Notes under the pieces: model-generated
What the model was told of the DNA's origin: nothing
Seen by the model: only the letters and a program-made list of their open reading frames with translations
The model's database searches: none
In this document: in pieces, positions 2,090 through 63,955 of the stretch
Layout of the letters: the number at the start of each line of letters is the position of its first letter
Numbering within the stretch: position 1 is the first letter of the stretch
Source: an uncultured Limnohabitans sp.
GTDB taxonomy: Bacteria; Bacteroidota; Bacteroidia; Cytophagales; Cyclobacteriaceae
Length of the DNA: 64,000 nt
Direction of reading: 5' to 3'
NCBI GenBank assembly: GCA_964530015.1
Contig: CAZGYC010000005.1
Location: 39,549 to 103,548 of the forward strand
Translations under genes and position numbers: made by a program

Positions 2090-2131
2090 CCGTGGACTGT
2101 TGACCGTGGTCTGTAGACTATTATCCGTTGT
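2090..2131. repeat. Degenerate 7-bp tandem repeat, 6 units
   Basis: CCGTGGA CTGTTGA CCGTGGT CTGTAGA CTATTAT CCGTTGT. Confidence 0.6.
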
Positions 2132-2289
2132 TTGACAATTCCATTTTAAGCTACTGGAAAAGTATCGTACAATCATTTCTCCCATTGCCAAAAGCATTTT
2201 TTCTGATTTATTATTTGGCTATCTTTTTCAAAAATTTCGGAAAACGTCGGCACTGCCCCACTTTTCAAAATCCAACTTTGGAAAACAGA

Positions 2290-5200
2290 ATGAAACACTA
2301 CCTGACCTCTTTGGGGCTTGCTTTTTTGTTTTTTGCCTGCGATCAGCAGACCAAGCTTGGAGTTTCCCGGGAAGTACCCTCCTACAGTCCGCCTGTGATC
2401 CGGGAGCTTGCTTCCCTTCCTGATTCCCTTCAGCCCATTTCCGTGAGCCTGCAGGACTTGCCACCGCCGAGAAAGATCCAGGTCCCGGGACAGGATGGAG
2501 GCAGCTATGTTTTTCTCGACGAAAACGGAGAGTCCCAGACCATCGCCCTTTTGGCCCCTGTCAGACAGGACCTGCAGGTATTGCTGGACGAAAGCGGAGA
2601 GGTAATCAGGGATTCTGGAGGCAAGCCCTTTCTTCTCGGAGAAGGCGGGCTTTCCCAGTTCAAAACCTATACGACAGATGACGGACTGGCACTCGATGCG
2701 GTCAATTGCGCCATTCTGGACAGCCGGGGCCACCTTTGGTTTGGGACAAACGGAGGCGGGGTAAGCCGCTACGATGGAAGCACGTTTACCAACTTTACCA
2801 CGGCACAGGGATTGGCGGGAAATATCCTCAGAAGTATGCTGGAAGACCGCAAGGGCAATATCTGGTTTGGGACCATCAGTGGAGTGAGCAAGTACGATGG
2901 CTACAGCTTTACCAACTATACCCGCGAAGACGGCCTCGGCGACGATGGCGTGTTCAGCATCTTGGAGGACCAAGACGGAACGATGTGGTTTGGTACGGGT
3001 GGGGGGGGCGTCAGCAAGCTCGAAGGGGAAAAATTCACCACCTACAGAACCGCAGACGGCCTCGCCGACAACTTTGTGATCAGTATCCTGGAGGGCGGGC
3101 AAGGCATCCTCTACTTTGGCACCTATGGAGGGGGGCTCAGCAGGTTTGACGGCCAGACCTTCAAGAATTTCACCGAGCAAGACGGCCTCTCCAGCAACCG
3201 CGTCAGGAGCCTCAGCCACAGCAGTCCGGGCAAAATCTGGATCGGGACGATCGGTGGCGGGGCAAGTCTTTTTGACGGCCAGACCTTTGCCAACTATTCG
3301 GTCAAAGACGGTCTGGCGGGCGATATCGTCCGTACCATCATCGAGGACTCCCACGGACACACCTGGTTTGCCACCGAGACTGGGATCAGCAGGTTGGACG
3401 GACGGAATTTCACCTCCTACACCCGTAACCAGGGACTGCCTGCCAACTCGGTGCTGTCCATCGTAAAAGATGCCTCGGGAAAACTCTGGTTTTGTACCGA
3501 CGGAGGCGGGGTAGCCCGGTTTGACGGCATCGCTTTCACCAATTTTTCGGTGACCCAAGGCCTGGGAAACAACATCGTACTCAGCACCCTGGAGGACAGG
3601 GAGGGAAATCTCTGGTTTGGGACAGCCGGTGGGGGAGTCAGCAAATTTGACGGGAAAAGCTTCCTCACCTACACCACCTCCCAAGGCCTGGGGGGAGACA
3701 TCGTGATCAGCATGATCCAGGATCGCGCCGGGAATTTCTGGTTTGGCACGGGCGGCGGGGGCGTCAGCAGATTTGACGGAAAGACATTTACCACCTACAC
3801 CAGCGCCCATACGCTGGGAGCCGATGAGATCTATTCGATCGCCGAAGACCGTCTGGGCAACCTTTGGTTTGGAAGCGAAGGCGGCGGACTGAGCAAATTT
3901 GACGGAAATGCCTTTACCACCTATACCTCCGATCACGGGCTTGCCGGCAATGTGATCCTCAGCATCCAGGAAGATGCGGAGAATCAGTTGTGGATCGCAG
4001 CCGTAGACGGCGGGATCAGCAGATTCGACGGGGAAAAATTCACCAACTTCTCCACCGCCCAAGGCCTGGCCAACAATGCCGTGGTCCGGATAAAAGAAGA
4101 CCTTCAGGGAAATCTCTGGATCGGCACGGAGCAGGGCTTGTCTTTTCTTCCAAAAAACAAACTCCTCTCCCAAACGAATCCCGGCGACTCCGCGTCTTAT
4201 TTTCTGTCTTTTGGAACACCCGAAGGACTCCCGGACAATCTGATCCAACAGATCGTCCCCATGGAAAACGGAAAAATAGCCGTCGGTACCAACCGTGGTT
4301 TTGCCTTTTTCGATGCCCCAAAAGCGGGAGAGGAATTCACGACGCTCGAAAATATCGAGACCTTCAACTCCAATACGGGCTATCCCGTCAAAGACCTCAC
4401 AGACGGACAAAACGGGATGTTTCAGGACAGCAAGGGGATCCTCTGGGCAGGCACGGGAAACAACAAGACCGCCCTGGTTCGCTTTGACCACCGGGAATTG
4501 GCCCTAAACCAAAGCCCTCCCCGGATTTTTCTCAAGCAAATCCGAATCAACGAGGAAATCATCTCCTGGAGCAGCCTTGCAGAACACCCCGCCCCCAAGG
4601 CCACGGTCTCCGAGGAACTGGCCACCTATGGCAAGGAACTCAGCGCAACCGAAAGAGAGGACTTGAGACGGAAGTTTGGCGGAATTGCCTTTGATGCCGT
4701 TTCCCCGTTTTACCCTTTCCCGCAAAACCTGGTTCTCCCCTATCGGCACAACCATATCAACATCGATTTCGGATCGGATGAACTGGCAAAACCCGACTTG
4801 GTAGAATACCAGTACATCCTGGAAGGGTATGATGCCACATGGAGCCCGGTGTTGAAAAAAACAAGCGCCACCTTTGGCAACATCCTGGAGGGAGACTATA
4901 CCTTCAGGGTAAAGGCGCGATTTACGGGACCTTCTGAGGAAGCGGCTGGGGAATGGACCGAACCGATCGAGTTTTCCTTTTCGGTGGAGCCCCCGATATT
5001 CCGCACCTGGTGGGCGTTTGTGGTCTATGCGCTGCTGTTCCTGTCGATGATCTACCCCATCCACCGGTACCAAAGGAACAAGGCGATCCATGCAGAGCAG
5101 GAAAAAGCCAGGGAACGGGAACTCGAACAGGCCCGGGAGATCGAAAAAGCCTACACCAAGCTGGAATCGGCCCATGAAAATCTGAAAGCCACCCAAAACC

Positions 5201-5982
5201 AACTGATCCAACAGGAAAAACTCGCGTCCCTGGGCCAGTTGACCGCGGGCATCGCACACGAAATCAAAAACCCGCTCAACTTCGTGAACAACTTCTCCGG
5301 ACTAAGCCTGGAGTTTTTGGATGAAATCGCGGAGGAGCTCGACAAAATGCCCGAGAGTGATTCCCTGGAAAACGTAAGGGACCTCCTGGCCGACATCAAG
5401 ACCAACCTGACCAAGATCAAGCACCACGGTGGCAGGGCAGACGGGATCGTGAAGTCCATGCTCATGCACTCCAGGGGAGGCAGTGGGGCGATGGAGCCTT
5501 CCGACCTCAACGAGGTGATCAAGGAATACGTCAATCTTTCCTTCCACGGGATGAGGGCCAACAAAAACCCGATCAATGTGGACGTAATTCTCAAATTGGA
5601 CGAAAGCCTTCCAAAAATCCCCCTCAATACGGAGGATTTCAGCCGGGTGATTCTGAACCTGACCAAGAATGCCTTTGATGCGATGCGGGAAAAAATCAAC
5701 AAATCCGGGCCGGAATACAAAGCCAAACTGGAAGTACGGACCACAGACCTCGGCGATTCCATCCTGATCGAAGTCGAGGACAACGGCCCCGGAGTGCCTG
5801 GGGAGATCCGGGACAAGCTGTTGATGCCTTTCTTTACCACCAAAAAAGGGACGGAAGGCACCGGACTGGGCCTCTCGATCACCCATGATATCATCAAAGC
5901 CCACAACGGCTCCCTGGACATCAGCTCGGAAGTCGGTGAGTGGACCCGGTTCAGCATTACGATTCCGAAGCAGGCCGATTGA
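2290..5982 (+). CDS. Sensor histidine kinase HK1: periplasmic Reg_prop beta-propellers, Y_Y_Y domain, TM helix, HisKA, HATPase_c
   Basis: About 44-aa blade repeats (GNIWFGTxGGGVSxFDG), Y_Y_Y-like LEGYD...GDYTFRVKA, TM segment WWAFVVYALLF, H-box AHEIKNPLNF, G boxes DNGPG and GTGLGLS. Start moved to ATG 2290, which gives a signal peptide. Confidence 0.92.
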   Translation: MKHYLTSLGLAFLFFACDQQTKLGVSREVPSYSPPVIRELASLPDSLQPISVSLQDLPPPRKIQVPGQDGGSYVFLDENGESQTIALLAPVRQDLQVLLDESGEVIRDSGGKPFLLGEGGLSQFKTYTTDDGLALDAVNCAILDSRGHLWFGTNGGGVSRYDGSTFTNFTTAQGLAGNILRSMLEDRKGNIWFGTISGVSKYDGYSFTNYTREDGLGDDGVFSILEDQDGTMWFGTGGGGVSKLEGEKFTTYRTADGLADNFVISILEGGQGILYFGTYGGGLSRFDGQTFKNFTEQDGLSSNRVRSLSHSSPGKIWIGTIGGGASLFDGQTFANYSVKDGLAGDIVRTIIEDSHGHTWFATETGISRLDGRNFTSYTRNQGLPANSVLSIVKDASGKLWFCTDGGGVARFDGIAFTNFSVTQGLGNNIVLSTLEDREGNLWFGTAGGGVSKFDGKSFLTYTTSQGLGGDIVISMIQDRAGNFWFGTGGGGVSRFDGKTFTTYTSAHTLGADEIYSIAEDRLGNLWFGSEGGGLSKFDGNAFTTYTSDHGLAGNVILSIQEDAENQLWIAAVDGGISRFDGEKFTNFSTAQGLANNAVVRIKEDLQGNLWIGTEQGLSFLPKNKLLSQTNPGDSASYFLSFGTPEGLPDNLIQQIVPMENGKIAVGTNRGFAFFDAPKAGEEFTTLENIETFNSNTGYPVKDLTDGQNGMFQDSKGILWAGTGNNKTALVRFDHRELALNQSPPRIFLKQIRINEEIISWSSLAEHPAPKATVSEELATYGKELSATEREDLRRKFGGIAFDAVSPFYPFPQNLVLPYRHNHINIDFGSDELAKPDLVEYQYILEGYDATWSPVLKKTSATFGNILEGDYTFRVKARFTGPSEEAAGEWTEPIEFSFSVEPPIFRTWWAFVVYALLFLSMIYPIHRYQRNKAIHAEQEKARERELEQAREIEKAYTKLESAHENLKATQNQLIQQEKLASLGQLTAGIAHEIKNPLNFVNNFSGLSLEFLDEIAEELDKMPESDSLENVRDLLADIKTNLTKIKHHGGRADGIVKSMLMHSRGGSGAMEPSDLNEVIKEYVNLSFHGMRANKNPINVDVILKLDESLPKIPLNTEDFSRVILNLTKNAFDAMREKINKSGPEYKAKLEVRTTDLGDSILIEVEDNGPGVPGEIRDKLLMPFFTTKKGTEGTGLGLSITHDIIKAHNGSLDISSEVGEWTRFSITIPKQAD

Positions 5983-6332: not shown

Positions 6333-9300
6333 ATGATAAATTTTAAAAAGTGGCTGTTCTTTTTGCCCCTGGTCTTCTTGAATTTGCCACGCTTGGCCTC
6401 TGCACAGGAGATCAGCGTTGAGCCCATCTCCATTTCCAACGGCCTGGCCTCTCCTTTTGTGGTTGATATCCACCAAGACGGCTACGGATTGATCTGGCTG
6501 GCGACGGGCAACGGCATCCAGCGTTACGACGGGTTTTCCTACAAGACCTTCCGCAACATTCCCGGCAATCCGGCCAGCCTCCAGGACAGCCAGTCTTTTG
6601 ACATCGAAGAGGATCAAGACCACAATCTCTGGATTGCCAACAATTTGGGCGTTTCCAAGTTTGATCGCGCTGCCAACAGCTTTGTCAACTATAACTTCGA
6701 AAAAATCTTCAACCTTGCTTCCGGTTCGGGAAGGGTTCTGAAGATCCTGGTGGATTCCCAGGGAAGGGTTTTTGCGGGAAGCGTCGCCAAGGAACTTGTC
6801 CAATTTGACCCCGAGAGAAACACCTGGGTTCAGCCCAAATACAAGGAGCCAGACTATGTTCCCAGCGAATTTGTCGGGATTTCGGTCTCCCTGGCAGAGG
6901 ATTCCCAGGGGGGCGTTTGGATTGGGTCCAGTACTTATGGCTTGATGCACCTTCCAAAGGGCGAGTCTGAGATTGCCCCGCTGGAGTTGGATCCCTCATT
7001 TGGTTTCAATTCCCCTTCCAATGAAATTACCGCCCTGCATTTTGACCAAGCCGACAAACTTTGGATTGCCTCCAGGCAGGGAATCTACACGATGGACAGG
7101 GCCACTCGGAAGGTGACTACACTCAAAGAATACACCGAGGCTCAGGAGGAATTTCTGAACCGCCTCAACTGCATCGTGGAGGACCAGGAAGGCAACATCT
7201 GGATCACCAACAACTTCCGTGGAATTTTGAAATTTGATCCCAAGTCGGAAAAATACCGGGAAATCCAGATCCCGGGCAACAGGAGGATTTTGGGAATGGG
7301 ATGGGAGATCCGGATGGCCCGGATGCTGGTGGACAAAAGCGGGATTTTTTGGTTTGGCACCTATGGCAGGGGCCTTTTCAAATACGATCCGGTAAACAAA
7401 CCCTTCAGTTTCCTGAGCCACGGGCCCGGAAATCCAAACAGCCTAAGTTCAGGCGGGGTTTTTGGGCTTTTGGCTTCCACGGCAAATCCAGGCCGGATCT
7501 TTATCGGCACACGCGGCGACGGGCTTACGGTTTTGGATGAAAAGGACAATTCTCTGCGGAAAGTCCGGTATCAATCTTCCGCCGATATTTTTGGAGGCTC
7601 CGTGAGATCCATCGGGGAGCAACAGGACGGCTCCCTTTGGTTGGGAACCTGGGGAGACGGATTGATCAAAGTGGACAAAAACCTCAAAGAAACCAAACGC
7701 TTCGCCAACAGTCCCGGTGATGAAAACAGCCTGGTCAACAATCAGGTGCGAGTCATCCGGGAGGATCGGAACGGCAAACTCTGGCTGGGGACCAACGGGG
7801 GCTTGACGATTATGAATCCGGAGACGGAATCGTTCCGGGAAGTGCCGAGCCGGTTCTTTCAAACCTATTCGGAGGAGATCATAGCCCAAGTCCAAGGCTG
7901 GCTGGACGCCAAGGAAGAAATCGGGATCATCGACCAGGTGGGAGCAGTCCAGAATTTATCCAAAGAGGTTAAAATCACCGAGGCCGGGACTTATTTCCTG
8001 GCTTTGGTGGGCGAAGGGGACCAGGCCTCCATGGCTGATTTTGGTTGGATTGCAGATTCAAACGGCGATACACTTGCCGGAATGGAGGATTTTGCCACGA
8101 GCTACCATGCAGGAGGAGCGGCCAAAAACAGAATGGTCATCGAAAAAGTAGAACTGACTCCCGGCACCTATACCCTGCACTATCAGTCAGATGACAGTCA
8201 CCACGTTGGCTCTTGGAACGAAAATCCCCCAGAACAACTCAGTCTCTATGGAATCGCCCTTTTTGGCAAGGATGCGGGTGACGAAAACCCGGCCATCATC
8301 AGCCTAAGCGAAGAGAAGGGCGAATCAATCATCCTGGGGCCAAATATTTCAGACATAGAAATTGGGGCGAAATACGTCTGGGTGGCCAGCAATTTTGCCG
8401 GGATCACCCGAATCGACCCTGAGACCAATCTGGTCAGGTACTATGAACACAAAAAAGAAGACATTGCCTCCCTCAGCAGCAACGAAATACTGGATCTCCA
8501 CGAAGACCAAAATGGCTTGCTTTGGGTAGTCACCAATGTCGGACTGAACATCATCGATCCCAAGACCGACCATATCACCAAATACAGCGAGGAAGAGGGC
8601 CTTGCCACCAATTTGCTGGAGGCGATTTTGCCGGGAGAAAATGGGGAAATGTGGCTTTCCTCCCAGAATGGACTGACCCAAATGGTTCGGAATGAGGAAC
8701 TCAACAAAGTCACCTTTATCAACTACAACCTGGAGGACGGAATCGGCGGAGAGGTGTTTCTTTCGCTTGCGGCCGGCAAAAGCCCGGACGGCAGGTTCTA
8801 TTTCGGCGGGGAGCATGGGCTGACCACCTTTACCCCGGTGGCTTCCAAAAGCATCCCGCCGTCAGTCATCATTTCCAATCTGCTGATTTCCAACAGGTCG
8901 GTCTATGAAATGGGCGGGGATTCTCCACTTCGGGAAGATTTGCTTGCCGCAGACCGGATCACTTTGCGGTATGACCAGAATGACCTGAGCTTTGAATTTG
9001 CCGCACTCCATTTTGCCAATCCTTCCAAAAACCAATATGCGCACATGCTGGTGGGGCTGGACGAGGACTGGATCTACAACAACCGAAATTTCGCCTCCTA
9101 CACCAATCTGGAGCCTGGCACCTATGAATTCAAAGTGATCGGCTCCAATGCCTACGGCGTATGGAACCAGGAAGGAAAAACCCTGAAAATCACCATTTTG
9201 CCACCGTGGTGGCTGACTTGGTGGGCTTATTTGGGATATGCGGTTCTGGCCGTGGTTTTGGTTCTGGCGGTCCTGGGAGCAGTCAGAAAGCGGATCCAAT

Positions 9301-10184
9301 CCAGGGAGCACCAAAAAAACCGGGAAAAGGAACTGGCCCATGCCCGGGAGATCGAAAAGGCCTATGGCGAACTCAAAGCCACCCAAGTCCAACTGATCCA
9401 CTCCGAAAAAATGGCCTCCCTCGGCGAACTGACTGCAGGCATCGCCCACGAGATCCAGAATCCGCTGAATTTTGTCAACAATTTTTCCGAAGTCACCAAT
9501 GAACTGATCGCGGAGATCGAGGAGGAAAGGGCCAAAGGCCGGGAATCACGCGATGAAGAGATGGTGACCGAGATCCTGGGAGACATCAGGGAAAACCTGA
9601 TCAAGATCAACCATCACGGCAAGCGGGCGGACACCATCGTCAAAGGAATGCTGCAGCACAGCAGGTCCGGGTCGGGCCAAAAAGAACTGACCGACATCAA
9701 TGCACTGACCGACGAATACCTCCGACTGAGCTACCATGGCCTGAGGGCAAAAGACAAAAGCTTCAACGCGGATTTTAAGATGGATTTGGATCCCGACCTT
9801 CCCAAGATCCACGTGGTGACACAGGATATCGGGCGGGTGCTGCTCAACATCATCAACAATGCTTTTTATGCCTGTTCCTTGAATGGGAAAGACCTTCCAG
9901 GTTTTGAAAACCTGGAAGGTCTGACCCCACCCCTCATCACCGTATCCACCAAAAACTTCGGCGACAAAATCCAGATCTCGATCAAAGACAACGGCCCCGG
10001 CATCCCGGATGCCGTGAAGGACAAAATCTTCCAGCCTTTCTTTACCACCAAACCCACCGGGCAGGGAACGGGCTTGGGATTGAGCTTGAGTTACGACATT
10101 GTGAAAGCGCATGGGGGTGAATTGAAGGTGGAGACTGAGGAAGGGAAGGGAAGTACGTTTATCGTGCAATTGCCCATCACTTGA
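6333..10184 (+). CDS. Sensor histidine kinase HK2: propeller with an inserted domain, Y_Y_Y, TM, HisKA, HATPase_c
   Basis: Signal peptide, propeller repeats, LEPGTYEFKVIGSN, TM segment WWLTWWAY, AHEIQNPLNF, DNGPG and GTGLGLS. Confidence 0.92.
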   Translation: MINFKKWLFFLPLVFLNLPRLASAQEISVEPISISNGLASPFVVDIHQDGYGLIWLATGNGIQRYDGFSYKTFRNIPGNPASLQDSQSFDIEEDQDHNLWIANNLGVSKFDRAANSFVNYNFEKIFNLASGSGRVLKILVDSQGRVFAGSVAKELVQFDPERNTWVQPKYKEPDYVPSEFVGISVSLAEDSQGGVWIGSSTYGLMHLPKGESEIAPLELDPSFGFNSPSNEITALHFDQADKLWIASRQGIYTMDRATRKVTTLKEYTEAQEEFLNRLNCIVEDQEGNIWITNNFRGILKFDPKSEKYREIQIPGNRRILGMGWEIRMARMLVDKSGIFWFGTYGRGLFKYDPVNKPFSFLSHGPGNPNSLSSGGVFGLLASTANPGRIFIGTRGDGLTVLDEKDNSLRKVRYQSSADIFGGSVRSIGEQQDGSLWLGTWGDGLIKVDKNLKETKRFANSPGDENSLVNNQVRVIREDRNGKLWLGTNGGLTIMNPETESFREVPSRFFQTYSEEIIAQVQGWLDAKEEIGIIDQVGAVQNLSKEVKITEAGTYFLALVGEGDQASMADFGWIADSNGDTLAGMEDFATSYHAGGAAKNRMVIEKVELTPGTYTLHYQSDDSHHVGSWNENPPEQLSLYGIALFGKDAGDENPAIISLSEEKGESIILGPNISDIEIGAKYVWVASNFAGITRIDPETNLVRYYEHKKEDIASLSSNEILDLHEDQNGLLWVVTNVGLNIIDPKTDHITKYSEEEGLATNLLEAILPGENGEMWLSSQNGLTQMVRNEELNKVTFINYNLEDGIGGEVFLSLAAGKSPDGRFYFGGEHGLTTFTPVASKSIPPSVIISNLLISNRSVYEMGGDSPLREDLLAADRITLRYDQNDLSFEFAALHFANPSKNQYAHMLVGLDEDWIYNNRNFASYTNLEPGTYEFKVIGSNAYGVWNQEGKTLKITILPPWWLTWWAYLGYAVLAVVLVLAVLGAVRKRIQSREHQKNREKELAHAREIEKAYGELKATQVQLIHSEKMASLGELTAGIAHEIQNPLNFVNNFSEVTNELIAEIEEERAKGRESRDEEMVTEILGDIRENLIKINHHGKRADTIVKGMLQHSRSGSGQKELTDINALTDEYLRLSYHGLRAKDKSFNADFKMDLDPDLPKIHVVTQDIGRVLLNIINNAFYACSLNGKDLPGFENLEGLTPPLITVSTKNFGDKIQISIKDNGPGIPDAVKDKIFQPFFTTKPTGQGTGLGLSLSYDIVKAHGGELKVETEEGKGSTFIVQLPIT
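9890..9922. repeat. Perfect 33-bp palindrome (REP-like) inside the HK2 coding sequence
   Basis: AGACCTTCCAGGTTTT g AAAACCTGGAAGGTCT; 16-bp arms. Confidence 0.85.
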
Positions 10185-55345: not shown

Positions 55346-55457
55346 GTTCCCACAGATTTGAACAGATTAAAATCACAGATTTACACAGAAAGGATAACAC
55401 CCCATCACAATAAATCAGTGATAATCTGTGTCCTTTTCTGTGACAATCTGTGGGAAC
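55346..55457. repeat. Right flank repeat / long hairpin of the GxxExxY cassette
   Basis: GTTCCCACAGATT...AATCTGTGGGAAC 13-bp inverted repeat with internal CACAGA and TCTGTG units. Confidence 0.9.
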
Positions 55458-56578
55458 TATTTCCTTGCCAGCCGTTTAAACACCTCCAAATACTGCTCGG
55501 TCACATGATCCCAATTGTATTTCTGAGTCAATCCAGAGCGGGCAGTCTGTCTCAATTCGCTCATGTTTTCCGGTTCGGATTCAGCTTTTTCTACAATTGC
55601 AGAGACAGATTCGGCCTTTTTATCAAAATACCATCCATGCTTTCCGTTTTGCAGCATTTCCTGGTTAAAGGGCGTGTCCAGGGCCAAAATGGCACAGCCA
55701 TAGCCCAAGGCCTTCAGCATCGCCGGATTGGTGCCGCCATACTCATGCCCGTGGAAATAGGCATAGCAATGCAAATAAAGTGAAGCCAACTCCGTCGGAT
55801 CGGTGACGTAGCCAGTGAACAGCAAGCGTGGGTCGTTGATGTTTTTAAGCCGGTTGGCCCAGGCATCTTCAAAGGGCACATCCCCCACAATGACCAGTTT
55901 CCGCCGGGATCCGGACTTCAAAAATCCGGCAATAATCAGGTCTGCATTGTTGTCCGGCACCAGCCTTCCCACGATCAGAAAATACCCCCGACTCTCCAGG
56001 TCCCACTTTTTGATTGGCCCCGACTCGACCGATTCCCTGGGATTTGCGCCGTATGCGATCACCTTGGAGTCGGCATCGAAAAGCTCCAGATACACCCTGC
56101 GCATTTCGTCGGAATCGTTGATGATCTGGTCGTAAAATTTGGTGGCCATCTTGGAGGCCCACTTGAAGTACTTCGAGCCTAGGCCCTTCCACTTGGGTCT
56201 GAGCCACTCCAGTCCATCGACATTGATGGCGGTAGGTTTTCCGAAAATCTTCGAAATCAGGCCAAAAGGACCGTTGCCGCTATTCACCACGAAGATCACG
56301 TCCACGTCCGAAAAGCAGGCATGGATCATCGAAAAAAAGGTATGCGAAAGCTGGGTGAGGCTTTTGGTCTCTATCGCAGGCGTGTAGATGCACTCGATCC
56401 CGTTGACAAAGCGGGGCTTTTCCACAAACAAAGCCCGGTGGTTGTACACCCGCACATGAACGCCTCTTTCGGAAAGTCTTTCCCCAAGTTCCTTGATCAG
56501 GGTATCATAGCCACCGTAGACATAGGGATAGCCCTTGGCACCCATGATGGCTACCTTCAGTCTTCGCTCAGTTGCCAT
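55457..56578 (-). CDS. DUF1972 / GT4 glycosyltransferase
   Basis: KVAIMGAKGYPYVYGG, INVDGLEW, HGHEYGGTNP. Confidence 0.9.
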   Translation of the reverse strand: MATERRLKVAIMGAKGYPYVYGGYDTLIKELGERLSERGVHVRVYNHRALFVEKPRFVNGIECIYTPAIETKSLTQLSHTFFSMIHACFSDVDVIFVVNSGNGPFGLISKIFGKPTAINVDGLEWLRPKWKGLGSKYFKWASKMATKFYDQIINDSDEMRRVYLELFDADSKVIAYGANPRESVESGPIKKWDLESRGYFLIVGRLVPDNNADLIIAGFLKSGSRRKLVIVGDVPFEDAWANRLKNINDPRLLFTGYVTDPTELASLYLHCYAYFHGHEYGGTNPAMLKALGYGCAILALDTPFNQEMLQNGKHGWYFDKKAESVSAIVEKAESEPENMSELRQTARSGLTQKYNWDHVTEQYLEVFKRLARK

Positions 56579-57713
56579 CGCGGGGTTTGATCTTTTGCTC
56601 GAAAGCCTCCAGGCTGTATTCCGAAAGAACCCTGGCCCTTCCGGCTTTTCCAAATTCCGCGCGCAGTGCAGGGTCTGCGATCAGTTTTTCCAGGGCCTCG
56701 ACGCCCCGTTCGACATTGCCGACGGGGATCAAAAAGCCGGTTTTCCCGTCCATGACCATTTCGACCGAGCCTCCGGAATCTGTCGCCACTACCGGCAGGG
56801 CGGAGGCCATCGCCTCCAATACGACCGTGGGAAAAGGATCCTGAAATATGGAGGGCAAAACGAACACATCCATGGCCTTCATCAGCACCGGGACATCCGT
56901 CCGATATCCGAGATAGGAGACCCGATTTTCCAGCTTTTTGTCTTTGATCTTTCTTTTCAAATCTTCCAGGATCGGTTCATAGCCCGCAAATGGATCCCCT
57001 ACCAGGATAAAATGGACCCTTGGGTTTTTTCGGGCGATGCACTCGGCCATTTCCAGGAAAAAAGCCTGTCCCTTGTGCGGATTGACACGCCCCACCATGC
57101 CTACAATCAACCGATCTTCAGGCAGTCCCGCTTTTCTCTTTGCCTCTGGCAGCTCTTCCAAAAACTCCCCGTAGGGGATGCCGTTGTGCACGACCTGGAT
57201 GCGGGATTTTTTCAGCAAAGGCTGCCAATGGTCTGCCACGGCATGGGAGACGGCTATCGGACGGGGTGTGGTGCTGTCCATCAGGCCACAAATGAACTTC
57301 ACCAGCGGCTTTGGTCCGGGAAAAATCTCATGGATATGCCACTGGTGGGGAATCTGGTTTCGCTTAGCCCAATAGGCGCCGACAATCACCGCCAATGTGT
57401 TGGAATACACCGATTCGAAGTTGTACTTGCCGTGAAGGTCGCCCAGGAAACGATAGGCCTGCAGATTTTTGCCCAATCTGTTGAGCAATCCCGAGGGGCT
57501 GACGTATTTCCTCCGGAGAATCCCCAGATTTTGGATATAGACCGGAAATCCTTCCTCCCTCAGGATCGGCTCCAGCGGTCCCGGACCCGTGAGCAACACC
57601 ACGGGATTGTAGCCTTCGCGCCGGTACAGCCGGAGTACCTGCAGGATGATCTTGCCGGTGCCATAAAGGTCCGAGGAGCTTTGCAGAAAAAGGACGTTGC
57701 GTGGGTTAGCCAT
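56568..57713 (-). CDS. GT4 glycosyltransferase
   Basis: VGRVNPHKG, DPFPTVVLEAMASALPVV. Confidence 0.9.
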   Translation of the reverse strand: MANPRNVLFLQSSSDLYGTGKIILQVLRLYRREGYNPVVLLTGPGPLEPILREEGFPVYIQNLGILRRKYVSPSGLLNRLGKNLQAYRFLGDLHGKYNFESVYSNTLAVIVGAYWAKRNQIPHQWHIHEIFPGPKPLVKFICGLMDSTTPRPIAVSHAVADHWQPLLKKSRIQVVHNGIPYGEFLEELPEAKRKAGLPEDRLIVGMVGRVNPHKGQAFFLEMAECIARKNPRVHFILVGDPFAGYEPILEDLKRKIKDKKLENRVSYLGYRTDVPVLMKAMDVFVLPSIFQDPFPTVVLEAMASALPVVATDSGGSVEMVMDGKTGFLIPVGNVERGVEALEKLIADPALRAEFGKAGRARVLSEYSLEAFEQKIKPRDGN

Positions 57714-58602
57714 TTCTTTTCAAGTAAATCCCAAAGATACCGGACTTGCCAAATCCAGAAGACAGCAATTCAAAAATCCATGCAACAGGCAAGAACAACC
57801 CGATCAAGACAAGCAAACCCGGTGATTTTCCCCGCTTCAGTTGCAGGATGAGGTTCTTTCGGTAGCCGATTTTCGAAAGCAGTGCCTGAAGCATCCCCAG
57901 AATCCCCAAATGAACCGAGAAACCCCGGGAGGCGATCTTTCCATAGCCGATTTTGGAAAACTCCCTTTCCAATCCCGACGCTGTCCAGTGGGTCAAATGC
58001 TTGGGAATGTCCCAGTGCATCCAGTTTTTCCCGGCGATCTTCGCCTGCCAGGAATCAGCCCGCGGCACCTCGACATAGACCAGCCCGTCCGGAGCCAGGT
58101 TTTTGTCCAGCAGCTCGGCCAAAAATGCCAAGGGGTCCGGCAGATGCTCCAAGACATGGTTGAGCGTGATCAGGTCAAAGTTTCCGCTTTGGATCTTTCC
58201 GCCCTGATAGAACCCGCTGGAAACTTCCACCTGATAGTTTTTCCGCGCAAAAACAGTTCTTTCGGCGGCGGTTTCCACCCCAAGTCCCTTCCAGCCTGAG
58301 TGCTTGGCCACCAAGAGAAACTGCCCCTTGCCGGAGCCAAAATCCAGCAGGGTGTGGGCTTGGGGATGCAGGGTGCGGGCTTTTCGGAGGATTTTCTTTG
58401 CCTCGGAAAAGATAATCCGCTCAAAGACCGATTTCCTGTTGTCCACCACGGCGTACACTTCATCGGAGTAGAGTGCGTTTGCATCGACCTCTTCGGGCAG
58501 ATAGGTCCAGCGAAGTCCGCAGGAAGTGCAGCCGCAGATGGATTGGGATTCCGGTGCTTTTTCGGGAGGTGTTTTACAAACTGGACAGGTAATTTGCCTC
58601 AT
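57706..58602 (-). CDS. Class I SAM-dependent methyltransferase
   Basis: N-terminal CxxC...CxxC, LDFGSGKG, LNHVLEH, HWDIPKH. Confidence 0.9.
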   Translation of the reverse strand: MRQITCPVCKTPPEKAPESQSICGCTSCGLRWTYLPEEVDANALYSDEVYAVVDNRKSVFERIIFSEAKKILRKARTLHPQAHTLLDFGSGKGQFLLVAKHSGWKGLGVETAAERTVFARKNYQVEVSSGFYQGGKIQSGNFDLITLNHVLEHLPDPLAFLAELLDKNLAPDGLVYVEVPRADSWQAKIAGKNWMHWDIPKHLTHWTASGLEREFSKIGYGKIASRGFSVHLGILGMLQALLSKIGYRKNLILQLKRGKSPGLLVLIGLFLPVAWIFELLSSGFGKSGIFGIYLKRNG

Positions 58603-59774
58603 TTAGCAAGTGGCGAACGGAGGATGATCTCTTGAAAAGCGGTGATGAATTTTTGTGCTGAAAAGTCTTTGGACCGGCGGTGGCCTGCCTGGATCAATCC
58701 GGGTCTCAGCGCGTTTTCACGCTCCAAAAGTATCATTTTTTCCGTCAAATCGGCTTGCACTCCGCTGGAGAACGCCAAACCTGCCCCTCCCGCCACTTCC
58801 ATCAGCGCGGGCTGGTCGGAATGGACCACCGGCACGCCAAAGCCCATCGCCTCCAAGACCGGGATGCCAAAGCCCTCATTTTCTGAGGGAAAGACGTAGG
58901 AAAAGGCCCCCTCATACAAGGCCCGCACTTCCCCGTCAGCCACATATCCGGGCAGCAGCACCCGGTCCTCCAGCCCCAGCTCCCGGACCATTTCCTCCAC
59001 GATCGGCAGGTCGTTCATCACCTTGCTCTGTCCCGGTCCGCCGGCCAGCACGAGTTTTTTATCCGAGCGGGTCTTGCCCAAAAAATCCGCATAGGCCCTG
59101 ACCAGCAAGGGCAGGTTCTTCCGCTTGTCAAAGGTGCCGATATGGAGGAAGTAGCCTCCCTTGTCCAGGTGGTTTTTTTGCAAAAAAGCCCCGGCACTTG
59201 CTCCATCCAGGCCTTTGGGGGCTTGGTAGACGACCGAGATCGGCAGCGAACTCCCCAGGTGCTCCAGGAGGGAGTTTTTGGCATATTCGGTCGTGGTGAT
59301 GATCTCCGTATTTTCCCTCAGCCCTTTTCGGATCAGGCTCAGGAAGTATTTCCTCCACCATCTCGGATAGTTTTGGGGCATCTGCCAAAAAAACGCATCG
59401 TGGACCACGGTCAGTCTCCGGCAGGGCAATGCCGCTGCCGGGGACACAAAGTCGGGGCAGAGCAGGACGTCCGGCTGGTGTTTTTTGACCAAGTCGGGAA
59501 GCTGAAACTCCTTCCACCGGAAATAGTCCAGGTGGTAGTTTAGCTTTTGGATTTTGGACTGGGGGCCTCGGTAGGTTTTGTCGCTTGCCTGCTCCTCGGG
59601 ATCGTGGGTAAAGACCCACTCAATCCCGGGATGCGGATAGGTCCGGGAGGCATGGGCCAGCTCCAGCATGTAGGTTTTGATCCCGGTGGTGGCGACGTTG
59701 AGGTATTGGAGATCGAGGAGGACTTTCAAACCGGAGAAATTTCGCCAAAGATAAACAGATTCAGCCAAACGCAT
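58599..59774 (-). CDS. GT4 glycosyltransferase
   Basis: TTGIKTY, IGTFDKRKN, EGFGIPVLEAM. Start uncertain (ATG 59774 or TTG 59729). Confidence 0.88.
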   Translation of the reverse strand: MRLAESVYLWRNFSGLKVLLDLQYLNVATTGIKTYMLELAHASRTYPHPGIEWVFTHDPEEQASDKTYRGPQSKIQKLNYHLDYFRWKEFQLPDLVKKHQPDVLLCPDFVSPAAALPCRRLTVVHDAFFWQMPQNYPRWWRKYFLSLIRKGLRENTEIITTTEYAKNSLLEHLGSSLPISVVYQAPKGLDGASAGAFLQKNHLDKGGYFLHIGTFDKRKNLPLLVRAYADFLGKTRSDKKLVLAGGPGQSKVMNDLPIVEEMVRELGLEDRVLLPGYVADGEVRALYEGAFSYVFPSENEGFGIPVLEAMGFGVPVVHSDQPALMEVAGGAGLAFSSGVQADLTEKMILLERENALRPGLIQAGHRRSKDFSAQKFITAFQEIILRSPLAK

Positions 59775-59845
59775 GGCCGCCTCCCGGTCAAGCCGCTTGT
59801 GGGGAAGCAGGACAACTGAACGGCACACCATCAGGCCTGCCCTTT

Positions 59846-60655
59846 TCAATACTCAGGCTCCTTAATCCCCCACTGGGATTTTTGCCTGAGATGAACAATG
59901 ACTTCAAGGTCAGCAGCAAAAGCTTTGGTTTTGTTTCCGAGTTTGGAAAGTAGCTTGAACATCAGATAGGGCGGCTTCAGCTCCCAATCCACGTAGTGAT
60001 AAGGATTGATCTGCACTTCGAAATCCGGGGAAAGCGTCTGAAAATAGGTCTTGATTTCGTTGGCGGAGTATTCTTTCCAGTGATGTCCATAGGTTACTTT
60101 TGAAAAGATATCGTCAACCGATACCCCGATAGACTTCATTAATAAGGTATTTTTGAGATTGCGGATATAGTTTGGCAATGCGAAGGCATTCGGTGTAGAC
60201 ACATAAATCACCCCCCCCGGCTTCAGGATCTGATAGATCCGTTTCCAAAAAACAATGGGATTGAAAGTGATGTGCTCCATGATCTCCGTAAATACCACCA
60301 AATCGTATTCATTTTCAACATTTTTAAACGCTTCCATTTTGGAGAGGTCGTTTTCGACGATGGGATTCAGCCTGAATTTTTCCGCTCTGGCTTTCACAAA
60401 GTCCATATCCCAGAATTCGGATACGTCCATGGCGTCCACTTCAAAACCCCTCTGCGCCAAGATCATGGATGAATGCAGGTAGTGGCTTCCAATGTCCAAC
60501 ACTCTGAGTCTTTCGCCTTTGGATGCAGCAGCATACTGAGTATCTAAATACGATACTAAACGGGCTTTCCTGTTTTGGTGAAATCTAAAATACTCCAGTT
60601 CATTGGCATGACCTGTTTGGTTGATTTCCTCGGCAATGGTTTGGAATACGCTCAT
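59846..60655 (-). CDS. Class I SAM-dependent methyltransferase
   Basis: VLDIGS, FTEIMEH, STPNA, HWKEYS. Confidence 0.9.
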   Translation of the reverse strand: MSVFQTIAEEINQTGHANELEYFRFHQNRKARLVSYLDTQYAAASKGERLRVLDIGSHYLHSSMILAQRGFEVDAMDVSEFWDMDFVKARAEKFRLNPIVENDLSKMEAFKNVENEYDLVVFTEIMEHITFNPIVFWKRIYQILKPGGVIYVSTPNAFALPNYIRNLKNTLLMKSIGVSVDDIFSKVTYGHHWKEYSANEIKTYFQTLSPDFEVQINPYHYVDWELKPPYLMFKLLSKLGNKTKAFAADLEVIVHLRQKSQWGIKEPEY

Positions 60656-61595
60656 TTTTTAAAGTAAAACGCAGCTTGATCACCCTGCTGGCGTTGGTTA
60701 AGGATTTTGGCGTGCTTTTCGAACGCCTTCAGCTGTGACTTCGAAAAGCTTTTGTGAGGATCCATGTCCACGAAAGCTTGTCCCTTTTTGTATAATTCTG
60801 TGATCCAAAATTGGTTCCCGATACTGTCAAATTCAAGCTTTTCCAAGGTCAATCCCACCGATTTTCCCAAGATCTCCATCCCCTTGACACTTGGGATAAA
60901 CAGATGCCGGGGTGCATCCACCTGAAACCAGTACTCACGCTCTTTTTTCCAGACAAGCGCGTCAGTTACCGGTAGCCTAGTCAAAACCCTGCCACCCGGA
61001 TTAAGAATCTCAGCTATCTTGGTAAAGGCCAGCCGGGGATTTTCCAAATGCTCAAAAGAATGGTGCAGCATGATCACGTCAAATCCCCCCCCCCCCCGCG
61101 AGTTGGCGTCACCTGATCCAGCGCAAGTCTTTTGATCTTCAGACGGGGGGTGTCCAGCTCTTCGGGGATAAAAGGATCAAACCCAAACAGATTTTGAAAC
61201 CCACAATAGGCCAGTTGCTTGAGCAGAACTCCGCTTCCGCAGCCGATGTCCGCAATACGCTCATGCTCATGGGTTCGGAGCTTTTTGATCCACGTGAGAT
61301 ACTGATTGTCCAGCAGCGATATTCCAGATTTTGAGATCTGATACCTTAGTTTCTTCAGACCTTGCTTAAAAGTAGAATCAGGGATTTCGGGTTTAAATGC
61401 GTAATAATCAGTCGGGTAATATTTCCCGAGATCTGCGGGTGTTGACTCTATCCACAACGATCCACAGTTCAGGCATTCCAGATAGGGGAAACTTCCGCCA
61501 ATGCCCAGCATCCTTTCCGAGGCACTGAAAGAAGAAGATTCTGGTGATCCACAGGCAGGACAGTTGGTTTGGTTCCCTGATTTTGTACTGGTCAT
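60652..61595 (-). pseudogene. Class I SAM-dependent methyltransferase split by a G13 tract (phase OFF)
   Basis: The N-half (CPACG, IADIGCGSG) and C-half (FDVIMLHHSFEH, DAPRHL) are out of frame across C13 at 61085-61097. Confidence 0.9.
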
Positions 61596-61689: not shown

Positions 61690-62565
61690 TCATTTTTTCA
61701 ATACGATCCACTGATTGACCCGAAAGAAATTTTGGATCAGCCGGTTGAGTTTTTTGCCCATCGGCATGTTGTATCGGAGCAAGTTCCCCAGTTTTTCGCC
61801 CAAAGTGTGGGTGAAGTGATCGACTACCTGCAATCCTTCTTCTTTGCAAAGTGATGCGAGGACGTTTTTTGGAAAGATAAAGGTGTGTTCCAGCCCATCG
61901 ATAATATCGGGGACCTGCAATCGGAGCAGCTTGGACCATCTGTGAAAACGGTACAGGTTGCTGGAGATATCGGGTGTCCCAATGGCGATCATTCCACCTG
62001 GTTTTACGATCCGTTTCATTTCCTGAACATAGGCTCTCGGATCCAAGACATGCTCAATCACGTGGGAAATATGGATAAAGTCAAAAAAGTCTTCAGGAAA
62101 ACTTGCTGTCCAAACATCCCCCCTGAAAGTTTTCACATCAAAATGAGCCGATACAAAATCAAGTGCTCCCTGGTCAAATTCTGTGGCATACAGTTCGCAG
62201 TCAAATTGGTTTGCATACGCCAAGCCCAATCCCAAGCCACAGCCGATATCCAGGAATTTTGAGCCCGGAACCAAGCCGCTCAGATATCTTGCTTCTTTTT
62301 TTATCGTCTCGGATGGTAGGCTTTTAATTCTGGAAAAATGATTCAAAATCAGGGCCTCGTAGTCCATCGCCTCATAATGATCCTTCTCGTAGTAGTGATG
62401 GTAATACTCTTCCAGTTCCTTCCCATCGGCCATGGGGTTCGCAAAGACCAGCTTGCAGGAGTTGCACTGCACCCGGGAGATGTGCGGCCCCTTTCTCTTT
62501 GTGTCGATGGCATAGCCTCTGAGATTTTCCGAATTGCAGATCGGACAGGTTTTATAAAGGATCAT
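61690..62565 (-). CDS. Class I SAM-dependent methyltransferase
   Basis: CPIC...CNSC, LDIGCGLG, SHVIEH. Confidence 0.9.
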   Translation of the reverse strand: MILYKTCPICNSENLRGYAIDTKRKGPHISRVQCNSCKLVFANPMADGKELEEYYHHYYEKDHYEAMDYEALILNHFSRIKSLPSETIKKEARYLSGLVPGSKFLDIGCGLGLGLAYANQFDCELYATEFDQGALDFVSAHFDVKTFRGDVWTASFPEDFFDFIHISHVIEHVLDPRAYVQEMKRIVKPGGMIAIGTPDISSNLYRFHRWSKLLRLQVPDIIDGLEHTFIFPKNVLASLCKEEGLQVVDHFTHTLGEKLGNLLRYNMPMGKKLNRLIQNFFRVNQWIVLKK

Positions 62566-63955
62566 GTTTTTCTGTTTTTTTCAGGAAAGAATACTCGTTG
62601 ATACTGGCCCCGATCATCCACCAGGACATCCAGGAGACGTAGGTGTAGATTTCCACATTGGCCGTGAAAAGGGGCAGAAGCAGGCCCACTTTGACCACCG
62701 CCCCGGTAAAGGAGACCCTCGCCATACCCAGCTTGTCGGTGGTCCGAAAGACATGGATGGAGTTTTTCACCCCGGATCCCAGGAGCAGGATGTACAGCAG
62801 CATCCCCGCCCAGCCCAACTGCACGCCATAGATCAAGAATTGGTTTTCGCCGCCTACTCTAAGCTCCTCCGACACGCTGCCAAAGTTGCCGCTCATCGCC
62901 AAGCCGATGCCCAGGGGATTGGCCACCATGGAGTCCAGGGCGAGGAGCCACTCCACCACATGTCCCACGCTGGAGTCACTTTCAAAAGTCAAGGTATCCA
63001 ACACGAAGTAGTAGAATTCCTCCGAGGCAAAAAACAGGATATACGCCACAAAAGCCAACAGCACGAGCAGTCCAAAGCCGATCAGCCGGTACAGCCTGAA
63101 AACCAGGGCCACAAAGAACACCATGATAAAAAAGGCCCCAAATGCCGCCCGGGAGGACGAAAAGACCAGACTGCCGAGGGAGCATCCCATGACCAGCAGA
63201 TACGGCCACGTGTATTCTTTTTTCGAAGTCAAAAACCAGATCAACCCGGCCGCAAAACCCATCAGCACGGAGCTGGCCAACTCCAGCGGATCCGAGAAAA
63301 ATCCCGCCAGACGCTTGGTGACCGCCTGGGTCTCAAAGGTCCAGGTCAGCCCGAAATTCCCCGTGGGATCGATGCCGTTGATCTCCCGATTGTACACCGC
63401 ATAGCCACTGAACTGCTGCAAATGCGCATCGAGGACAAAGCTCTCCGCACAGTTGACCAAAAACCCCAAGATGGCGATGACAAAAATGATCCGAAAAAGC
63501 CAATGGACCTCCCGGTCGCCAAAGCGCGTGTTCCTTCCCAGAAAATAGACCAGGCCCGGGAGGAGCATGCTTTTGTAATACAGGGCCTTGTTGGCAAAGG
63601 AAGCGGCTCCCAAGGGCAACAACAGGTACAGAAATCCCAGGCCCAACAGCGCCAGCATCAGCCAGTCGGTGGACTGCAGGCGAAAGGGGTAATTGAAGAT
63701 CTTTCTTTGATAAAAGACAAAGACCAAGACCGCCAGAAGAACCACCAGCTCCTTGAGGGACTGGAAGACAAGCAGCAGCTCCGGGGATCCCGTGGCCAGA
63801 TAGACGATACTCAGGCTGGTGATGTAAAAGGGCAGGTAGGCCGCCAGAAAGAAGACAAAATAGCTCCATTTGCCCTCGAAAATGACCGTTTTCAAGATCC
63901 ACAAAAATCCCGTGCCAAGGGTCAGGGAAAGGAGGACAAAGGTGGTTTCGATCAT
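62552..63955 (-). CDS. O-antigen polymerase/ligase-like (Wzy_C) membrane protein
   Basis: Many TM helices, SSSRAA, DSSVGH, GIGL periplasmic loop; sits in a glycan locus. Confidence 0.75.
   Translation of the reverse strand: MIETTFVLLSLTLGTGFLWILKTVIFEGKWSYFVFFLAAYLPFYITSLSIVYLATGSPELLLVFQSLKELVVLLAVLVFVFYQRKIFNYPFRLQSTDWLMLALLGLGFLYLLLPLGAASFANKALYYKSMLLPGLVYFLGRNTRFGDREVHWLFRIIFVIAILGFLVNCAESFVLDAHLQQFSGYAVYNREINGIDPTGNFGLTWTFETQAVTKRLAGFFSDPLELASSVLMGFAAGLIWFLTSKKEYTWPYLLVMGCSLGSLVFSSSRAAFGAFFIMVFFVALVFRLYRLIGFGLLVLLAFVAYILFFASEEFYYFVLDTLTFESDSSVGHVVEWLLALDSMVANPLGIGLAMSGNFGSVSEELRVGGENQFLIYGVQLGWAGMLLYILLLGSGVKNSIHVFRTTDKLGMARVSFTGAVVKVGLLLPLFTANVEIYTYVSWMSWWMIGASINEYSFLKKTEKHDPL

Follow-up and report, generated by a model that had tools for sequence, protein, structure and literature searches.

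The window analysed here is a stretch of 64,000 nucleotides from contig CAZGYC010000005.1 of assembly GCA_964530015.1 (positions 39,549 to 103,548 of the forward strand), a deposited metagenome-assembled genome (MAG). Within a putative surface-polysaccharide operon it carries a methyltransferase gene, which we call MT-B, that is divided into two open reading frames (ORFs) by an uninterrupted run of 13 G. On balance, we lean to the interpretation that this tract is a contingency switch, in which slipped-strand mispairing turns MT-B ON and OFF and which currently stands in the OFF position.

The poly-G tract and the MT-B protein

The plus strand reads ...CAAAT, 13 C and GCGAG... at positions 61085-61097 and, because the genes of the region are all on the minus strand, the coding strand reads G13. 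The tract and the two parts of the gene are as follows.

61085..61097, minus strand: G13 homopolymer (C13 on the plus strand), a slippage-prone tract, read as a Gly run (residues 167-171) in an in-frame allele
61074..61595, minus strand: MT-B upstream ORF, 173 aa, with an N-terminal Cys4 zinc ribbon and the S-adenosylmethionine (SAM)-binding motif I (IADIGCGSG); TGA 3 codons past the tract
60652..61077, minus strand: MT-B downstream ORF, 141 aa from GTG, with strand beta4 (FDVIMLHH) and the C-terminal, substrate-side half

The upstream ORF ends in ...QVTPTRGGGGDLT (...TPTRGGGGDLT, followed by the stop codon), so that both the count of 13 G and the ...PTRGGGGDLT terminus given in a first-pass annotation of this DNA agree with the sequence of the window and with the ORF 61074..61595. 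The downstream ORF begins (V)IMLHHSFEHLENP...; its GTG overlaps the TGA of the OFF frame as GTGA, and an ATG is found 6 nt further on. It had also been claimed that 14 or 11 G would restore the frame into the C-terminal half, and this was confirmed by rebuilding the gene in silico with 8-18 G: G8, G11, G14 and G17 gave a single ORF of 312-315 aa, which reads ...GG-FDVIMLHHSFEH... past the tract, and all other lengths led to a stop 1-3 codons past the tract and to a product of 170-174 aa. In this rebuild, changes in length by a single unit toggle MT-B between a full-length and a truncated product.

Contingency genes are recognized by an uninterrupted mononucleotide repeat, in a coding sequence or a promoter, whose length stands out in the genome (as a rule at least 7-8 G/C). 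The G13 run has this character of the phase-variable genes based on simple sequence repeats (SSR), being located inside a coding sequence in a window whose other G/C runs do not exceed 8 nt; the first-pass annotation was thus right in calling it the only long G/C homopolymer of the 64 kb. The next-longest runs are G8 at 3001-3008 and C8 at 60211-60218. Shuffles preserving dinucleotide composition contained on average 0.08 G13 per window (at least one in 5 of the 100 shuffles), and the run-length distribution of the window itself, which drops ~4-5-fold with each extra base, leads to an expectation of ~1e-3 for a 13-mer. The G8 at 3001-3008 is in frame within a gene for a 1284-aa sensor histidine kinase (2128..5982, plus strand), which is followed by a paralogue of near-identical length (6333..10184).

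We analysed MT-B as the 314-aa read-through protein. It matched the Pfam model Methyltransf_23 with an E-value of 1.3e-17 and 64.4 bits (cutoff 27), and four further class I methyltransferase models scored above threshold (the set comprising Methyltransf_23/11/12/25/31); a search of NCBIfam returned no model at its cutoff. The protein displays an N-terminal CPxC...CxxC zinc ribbon, the motif I IADIGCGSG, which is invariant in the alignment of homologues, an acidic residue past strand 2 (GFDPF), and strand 4 (FDVIMLHH). The start codon ATG at 61595 is favoured by the homologues over the one at 61511; the automatic annotation of the Logan contig placed the MT-B start at M29 (MLGIGG..., 61511), and thereby lost the zinc-ribbon half with the conserved CPAC.

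An AlphaFold model derived from 19 homologues reached a mean predicted local distance difference test (pLDDT) of 89.8 and a predicted template-modelling score (pTM) of 0.88. It has a Rossmann-like seven-strand fold, with more than 1000 matches to PDB methyltransferases at E <1e-3. The top fold matches were the zinc-domain nucleoside diphosphate (NDP)-sugar methyltransferases MtmC, KijD1, and TcaB9 (Foldseek E 5e-13 to 1e-10, template-modelling [TM] scores 0.50-0.56), and a sequence profile search also reached TcaB9 (E 2.5e-7). As in MT-B, a Cys4 zinc domain at the N-terminus of these enzymes precedes a class I methyltransferase fold. However, they share only 13-17% sequence identity with MT-B, which is ~100 residues shorter, the TM scores of 0.50-0.56 are low, and neither Methyltransf_13 nor Methyltransf_14, the models for the dedicated C-terminal domain of the TcaB9-type C3-methyltransferases, gave a match in MT-B. 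The TcaB9 type is further characterized by active-site residues that serve the C-methylation of a 4-keto sugar. Judging from sequence and model, MT-B is thus predicted to be a class I SAM-dependent methyltransferase of the zinc-ribbon type.

In the same model, Gly167-171 lie just ahead of strand 172-178, in the sole internal loop of low confidence (pLDDT below 50 for residues 166-168). The tract site is also length-variable in the alignment of homologues, MT-B of the window exceeding its nearest relatives by 3 residues there and the remaining homologues by 6. Because the site falls in a loop that varies in length and is modelled with low confidence, the gain or loss of glycines should be tolerated.

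Selection on MT-B and poly-G tracts in related loci

In comparisons with three orthologues, the ratio of nonsynonymous to synonymous substitution rates (dN/dS) was 0.06-0.12 over the 143 MT-B codons that G13 puts out of frame; the N-terminal half gave 0.08-0.16. Moreover, no further stop, indel or other lesion was found in the out-of-frame half. The low dN/dS and the lack of additional lesions together argue that MT-B has not long been a pseudogene.

The first-pass annotation had suggested looking for the tract in orthologues, with an outcome that depends on the gene considered. At the MT-B site no tract was found: the six orthologue loci (69-86% nt identity) have GAGAGGGAGGATTC or a similar purine-rich sequence, those at 83-86% nt identity read GAGAGGGAGGA, and the relatives from soil metagenomes (runs X5-X7) are likewise without a tract. 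Since the site is free of a tract in the orthologues, G13 is a recent, lineage-specific expansion. On the other hand, G9 and G10 tracts are present in related lineages in the adjacent gene MT-A, whose orthologues carry poly-G at one fixed site directly before motif I, in the following forms.

L004 MT-A: TTG-G10-AAA, in frame (ON)
L087 MT-A: TAT-G10-AAT, in frame, 292 aa (ON)
L005 MT-A: L087 context but G9, frameshifted (OFF)
L001 MT-A: GTG GGG GGG GGT (G9), in frame (ON)
L053 MT-A: TTA-G9-CTA, frameshifted (OFF); G10 would restore the frame
Runs X22 and X27, MT-A: TTG-G10-ACT, in frame (ON)
L088, X20 and L089-91, MT-A: interrupted tract, e.g. GGGTGGGGGG, stable ON

Both ON and OFF states of the MT-A tract therefore occur among relatives, including the strains of L087 and L005, which are 96.8-98% identical over 2.3 kb and differ by G10 versus G9. 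L053 belongs to a marine Algoriphagus lineage; related strains in X22 and X27 have the in-frame G10, and X20 and L088 the interrupted tract. Long G/C runs are otherwise rare: runs of at least 9 nt were present in only 7 of the 91 loci that we fetched (the first 85 of which amount to 1.05 Mb), and in 6 of these 7 they are located in an MT-A or MT-B gene of the present locus family. The remaining one, L077, has an in-frame G9 (4221-4229) that encodes motif I glycines (DVGGGSG) in an unrelated methyltransferase of a glycan locus (33% identity class). Even GGG is uncommon at the MT-A tract site, where it was found in only 3 of 120 MT-A cluster representatives. A scan of GTDB representative genomes yielded relatives at <=46% identity only, and in a scan of JGI metagenome contigs the best match was 57% (L053), with no contig of the same species. 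As far as comparison of sequences can tell, recurrent, uninterrupted and length-polymorphic ON/OFF tracts in one surface-glycan locus form the classical comparative signature of contingency loci.

Tract length in metagenomes and competing explanations

The evidence on tract length comes from assembled Logan contigs, which drop minor variants. Seven public runs contain words of the region, and the sister metagenomes X1-X4 hold it in near-identical form. In all four of the latter, contigs break at the tract, and those that cross it end 2-9 nt past it. Exactly 13 G are present in both X1 contigs and in the X3 contig (record coordinates, one-sided layouts); the X4 contigs (5-7x depth) do not cross the tract. 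In X2, contig L086 (1545 nt, ~75x depth), which was reached through the intact neighbouring gene of MT-B, matches the window base for base over 1541 nt and terminates after the sequence CTCGC-G12-ATTT. L086 thus has G12 where the window, X1 and X3 have G13, with zero other differences over 1541 nt, a comparison that involves contigs only and in which a technical origin is possible. Another X2 contig, coming from the opposite side, has 13 C and two further bases, in which the reference G directly after the tract is replaced by another letter. X2, the deepest sample, therefore holds at least two versions of the tract and, given the disagreement between G12 and G13 among assemblies, the deposited tract length is uncertain by at least 1. 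We could rule out that the poly-G is a chimeric artefact, because the sequences on either side of it belong to one conserved gene, as its collinear halves, and the tract is found in independent assemblies of four runs.

Several observations weigh against a functional switch. The difference between G12 and G13 fits real heterogeneity and polymerase slippage or Illumina failure past long G tracts equally, and the two lengths read for MT-B, 12 and 13, are both OFF. No in-frame MT-B was found in a collection of ~15 billion proteins, in which the best full-length match was 85% identical, and when the G9-G17 forms, with starts at M1 and M29, were looked up as exact sequences, only the 141-aa ORF downstream of the tract in the deposited contig was matched. 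The coexistence of ON and OFF alleles in nature was thus not observed for MT-B, of which the public collections searched contain no in-frame allele. The related loci also provide examples of OFF alleles that persist or decay. The L053-type MT-A tract (G9, OFF; L053 5178-5186) showed zero differences in nine runs (X8, X15-X19, X24-X26) dating from 2015-2025, in a comparison based on contigs from several studies that cover parts of a 400-nt stretch, so that OFF is at least a stable consensus in this lineage. In L005, the MT-A gene that is OFF by G9 has also suffered a 67-nt deletion (L005 3172 vs L087 1903-1969), a sign that OFF alleles can decay. Lastly, a co-occurring, slightly divergent variant contig that was assembled independently in X3 and X4 (depth ~10) joins 60952 to 61473 with 105 unrelated nt between them, so that ~415 nt of MT-B are missing, among them motif I and the site of the tract. 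This variant shares single-nucleotide polymorphisms at 60921/60922 with the soil relatives in runs X5-X7. In another locus, L090, one C-to-A change has introduced a nonsense codon that splits the Wzy polymerase gene (L090 4415 vs L089, the two contigs being 99.9% identical), no repeat being involved. Loss of function by various routes is evidently common in these loci, which fits diversifying selection on the glycan and dispensability of the genes equally.

The proposal of stochastic ON/OFF switching made in the first-pass annotation hence stands in part. G12 versus G13 in otherwise identical DNA of sister samples, the ON and OFF tracts of MT-A in relatives, and purifying selection speak for it; the missing in-frame MT-B allele and the OFF state of both lengths do not.

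Its most serious competitor, which we nevertheless consider unlikely, is that the tract is a mutational hotspot in a pseudogene. A stretch of glycine codons would have been expanded by slippage and MT-B inactivated, this loss being neutral or favoured and switching back having no role. Such a course of events would account for the exclusively OFF lengths, for the absence of an ON allele from all public collections searched, for the X3/X4 variant that misses part of MT-B, for the L053-lineage MT-A that remained OFF and unchanged in 9 runs over 10 years, and for the deletion and the nonsense mutation seen in L005 and in the L090 Wzy gene, respectively. It is more difficult to reconcile with 143 out-of-frame codons that are free of stops and indels and still display the dN/dS given above. 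In addition, an uninterrupted run of 13 nt far exceeds what a one-off frameshift needs and should decay fast if unselected, yet an uninterrupted GGG-GGG-GGG has been kept in MT-A by lineages that differ by 15-30% in the flanks of this site, and ON and OFF forms of MT-A coexist in ~97%-identical strains.

It is improbable, in our opinion, that the tract was simply miscounted, i.e., that the chromosome is really in frame (most likely with G14), that MT-B is ON, and that the frameshift reflects poor homopolymer calling. Two assemblies of one population do disagree (G13 vs G12), every Logan contig ends just beyond the tract, and Illumina reads are unreliable through G tracts, as illustrated by a Bifidobacterium breve reference G11 that is in fact mostly G12 (PMC9187656). 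However, a count of 13 was obtained independently at four contig ends (those of both X1 contigs, of X3 and of the deposited MAG), and 14 or 11 at none of them. Errors are usually of one unit in both directions; here 12 was the sole alternative length, and it too is out of frame.

We give still less credence to the expression of a functional enzyme despite the frameshift, be it by slippage of RNA polymerase on the C13 template, by ribosomal frameshifting, or by separate production of the two halves (GTGA reinitiation) and their assembly. The GTGA overlap and the ATG 6 nt further on would permit termination-reinitiation, and long homopolymers are known sites of transcriptional slippage (PMC3711429). 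Nevertheless, documented transcriptional slippage in bacteria occurs mainly at A/T runs, and programmed cases are conserved among orthologues, whereas the MT-B orthologues are in frame and tract-free. An enzyme made of two pieces is unlikely because the split separates motif I from strand beta4 within the Rossmann fold. A programmed frameshift was accordingly rejected as the main explanation, the orthologues being single in-frame ORFs without a tract site.

If the tract is indeed a slipped-strand contingency switch, the following scenario may be proposed. The MT-B lineage would have acquired a 13-nt poly-G in a surface loop just before strand beta4, which would gain and lose G by slipped-strand mispairing during replication. 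Lengths of 11, 14 and 17 would give the full enzyme with 4-6 loop glycines, whereas any other length would lead to a stop 1-3 codons later and to the loss of the C-terminal half. The sampled population would be mainly OFF, with G13 and, in one sample, G12. The tract would then operate as a stochastic and in principle reversible switch for one methyl decoration of the polysaccharide, with a possible polar effect on the translationally coupled downstream genes, and may be one of several such tracts that are gained and lost by the paralogous methyltransferase genes of the locus in Algoriphagus-like bacteria. The rate and reversibility of switching in vivo, the sugar substrate, and the benefit against phages or grazers are what we infer from this scenario.

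The polysaccharide operon, its host and related systems

The genes that surround MT-B, all on the minus strand, are listed here in the order of transcription.

62552..63955, minus strand: Wzy/O-antigen-ligase-like polymerase, the first gene of the operon inside the window
61690..62565, minus strand: MT-A, zinc-ribbon SAM methyltransferase adjoining MT-B, without a tract in the window (…GLVPGSKFLDIGCG)
59846..60655, minus strand: MT-C, third methyltransferase; its start overlaps the MT-B stop (ATGA)
58599-59849, minus strand: GT4 glycosyltransferase
57706-58602, minus strand: MT-D
56568-57713, minus strand: GT4 glycosyltransferase
55457-56653, minus strand: GT4/DUF1972

Within the window, the MT-B operon is thus composed of the Wzy-like gene, three further methyltransferases and three GT4 glycosyltransferases. 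The stop and start codons of successive genes mostly overlap, the exception being a 94-nt gap between MT-A and MT-B. A scan for promoters and terminators gave counts at the level of shuffled sequence, with a consensus that is not applicable to Bacteroidota. Related loci carry genes for Wza-type export, a Wzx flippase and a GT2 upstream, and the order export protein, Wzx, GT2, Wzy and MT-A is common to the related loci L088 and L089. From its gene content, the locus can be assigned to the Wzx/Wzy-dependent surface-polysaccharide operons. In such a context, to describe MT-B as a glycan methyltransferase is a fair reading, and this earlier designation is supported both by the Pfam match to SAM methyltransferases and by the location inside a Wzy-dependent operon. 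The connection of MT-B with a surface structure, as found in contingency genes, is given by gene context alone.

The C8 at 60211-60218 is an in-frame G8 of MT-C (CCG GGG GGG GTG, in the LKPGGV motif), where the orthologues read CCGGGAGGA or CCTGGAGGA. This G8 may represent the beginnings of a tract in a third methyltransferase of the same operon.

The presence of type IX secretion system (T9SS) sorting domains, SusC and PorP/SprF places the host in Bacteroidota. A housekeeping 2-oxoacid oxidoreductase is 84-86% identical to that of named Algoriphagus species and 76-78% identical to that of other Cyclobacteriaceae. The host is therefore an Algoriphagus-like member of Cyclobacteriaceae, in agreement with the environmental Bacteroidota that had been proposed from the sequence.

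Repeat-mediated phase variation is a textbook feature of host-adapted pathogens with small genomes. The first-pass annotation had contrasted the poly-G slippage that varies the capsule and lipooligosaccharide (LOS) methyltransferases of Campylobacter with the invertible promoters that mainly serve this purpose in Bacteroidota, and the literature is consistent with both statements (PMC8437040; PMC11868660). Campylobacter jejuni has 29 poly-G tracts, 8 of which are in the capsular polysaccharide (CPS) and LOS loci, including that of the CPS methyltransferase gene cj1426 (PMC8437040). Like MT-B, cj1426 (a CPS heptose 6-O-methyltransferase) has an intragenic poly-G, encodes a SAM methyltransferase in a surface-polysaccharide locus, and has its state set by the reading frame; in both C. 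jejuni and the MT-B locus family, several modification genes per locus bear tracts. This likeness is a functional analogy only. The two systems also differ in several respects: C. jejuni is a host-associated pathogen of the Campylobacterota whereas MT-B belongs to a free-living, Algoriphagus-like Bacteroidota, and switching of cj1426 has been measured at ~2e-2, whereas MT-B was read from assembled contigs, among which no ON allele was seen.

A second parallel comes from B. breve, like the MT-B host a non-pathogen, in which G10-G12-type tracts split the sortase-pilus genes bbr_0113a/b and bbr_1889a/b into two annotated ORFs, with a reference length that is uncertain by one unit, as for MT-B. 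The G11 of the reference sequence in a sortase-pilus gene was found to be a mixture of G11 and G12 by error-corrected (maximum-depth) sequencing, and Illumina and PCR artefacts were documented at long G tracts (PMC9187656). Relatives of B. breve repeatedly show equivalent tracts, as is the case here, and polarity on downstream genes of the operon has been discussed (PMC9187656). However, B. breve is an Actinobacterium and the gene concerned encodes a pilus, its heterogeneity being proven by maximum-depth sequencing; MT-B is a putative glycan methyltransferase, the tract of which was read in contigs only.

The documented glycan switches of Bacteroidota are invertible promoters (PMC11868660). 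The capsular polysaccharides of Bacteroides are surface glycans that are turned ON and OFF stochastically in the same phylum as the MT-B host, but by site-specific inversion of promoters, in contrast with the slipped-strand mispairing in a coding homopolymer that is proposed for MT-B. A speculative C4-to-C5 frameshift in an acetyltransferase of Bacteroides fragilis has been mentioned (PMC3090145). In our literature search, this speculative case was the only one of repeat-driven phase variation found for Bacteroidota, and none was found to be reported in Cytophagales or Flavobacteriia.

The MT-B tract is thus a candidate for a poly-G contingency gene of a known type, in a phylum and with a lifestyle that are unusual for it. 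A more far-reaching possibility, which we put forward tentatively and hold to be rather doubtful, is that free-living, Algoriphagus-like Cyclobacteriaceae run a small SSR 'phasome' in their Wzy operon. Poly-G tracts would arise, expand, become interrupted and move between the paralogous zinc-ribbon methyltransferases, namely MT-A (in several marine and soil lineages), MT-B and, with its incipient G8, MT-C, giving a combinatorial methylation of the surface glycan that is inherited yet reversible; this would be the first described repeat-driven phase variation in Bacteroidota, with a pattern that could be read straight from metagenomes. Should there be no switching, the case would still be a warning about the reliability of homopolymer length calls in metagenome assemblies. 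If switching does occur, apparent pseudogenes of MAGs that are split at long G runs should not be discarded. Environmental Cyclobacteriaceae would then use a Campylobacter-style strategy for the decoration of their glycans, and tract lengths in metagenomes would provide a direct field read-out of the selection that phages or grazers exert on surface glycans.

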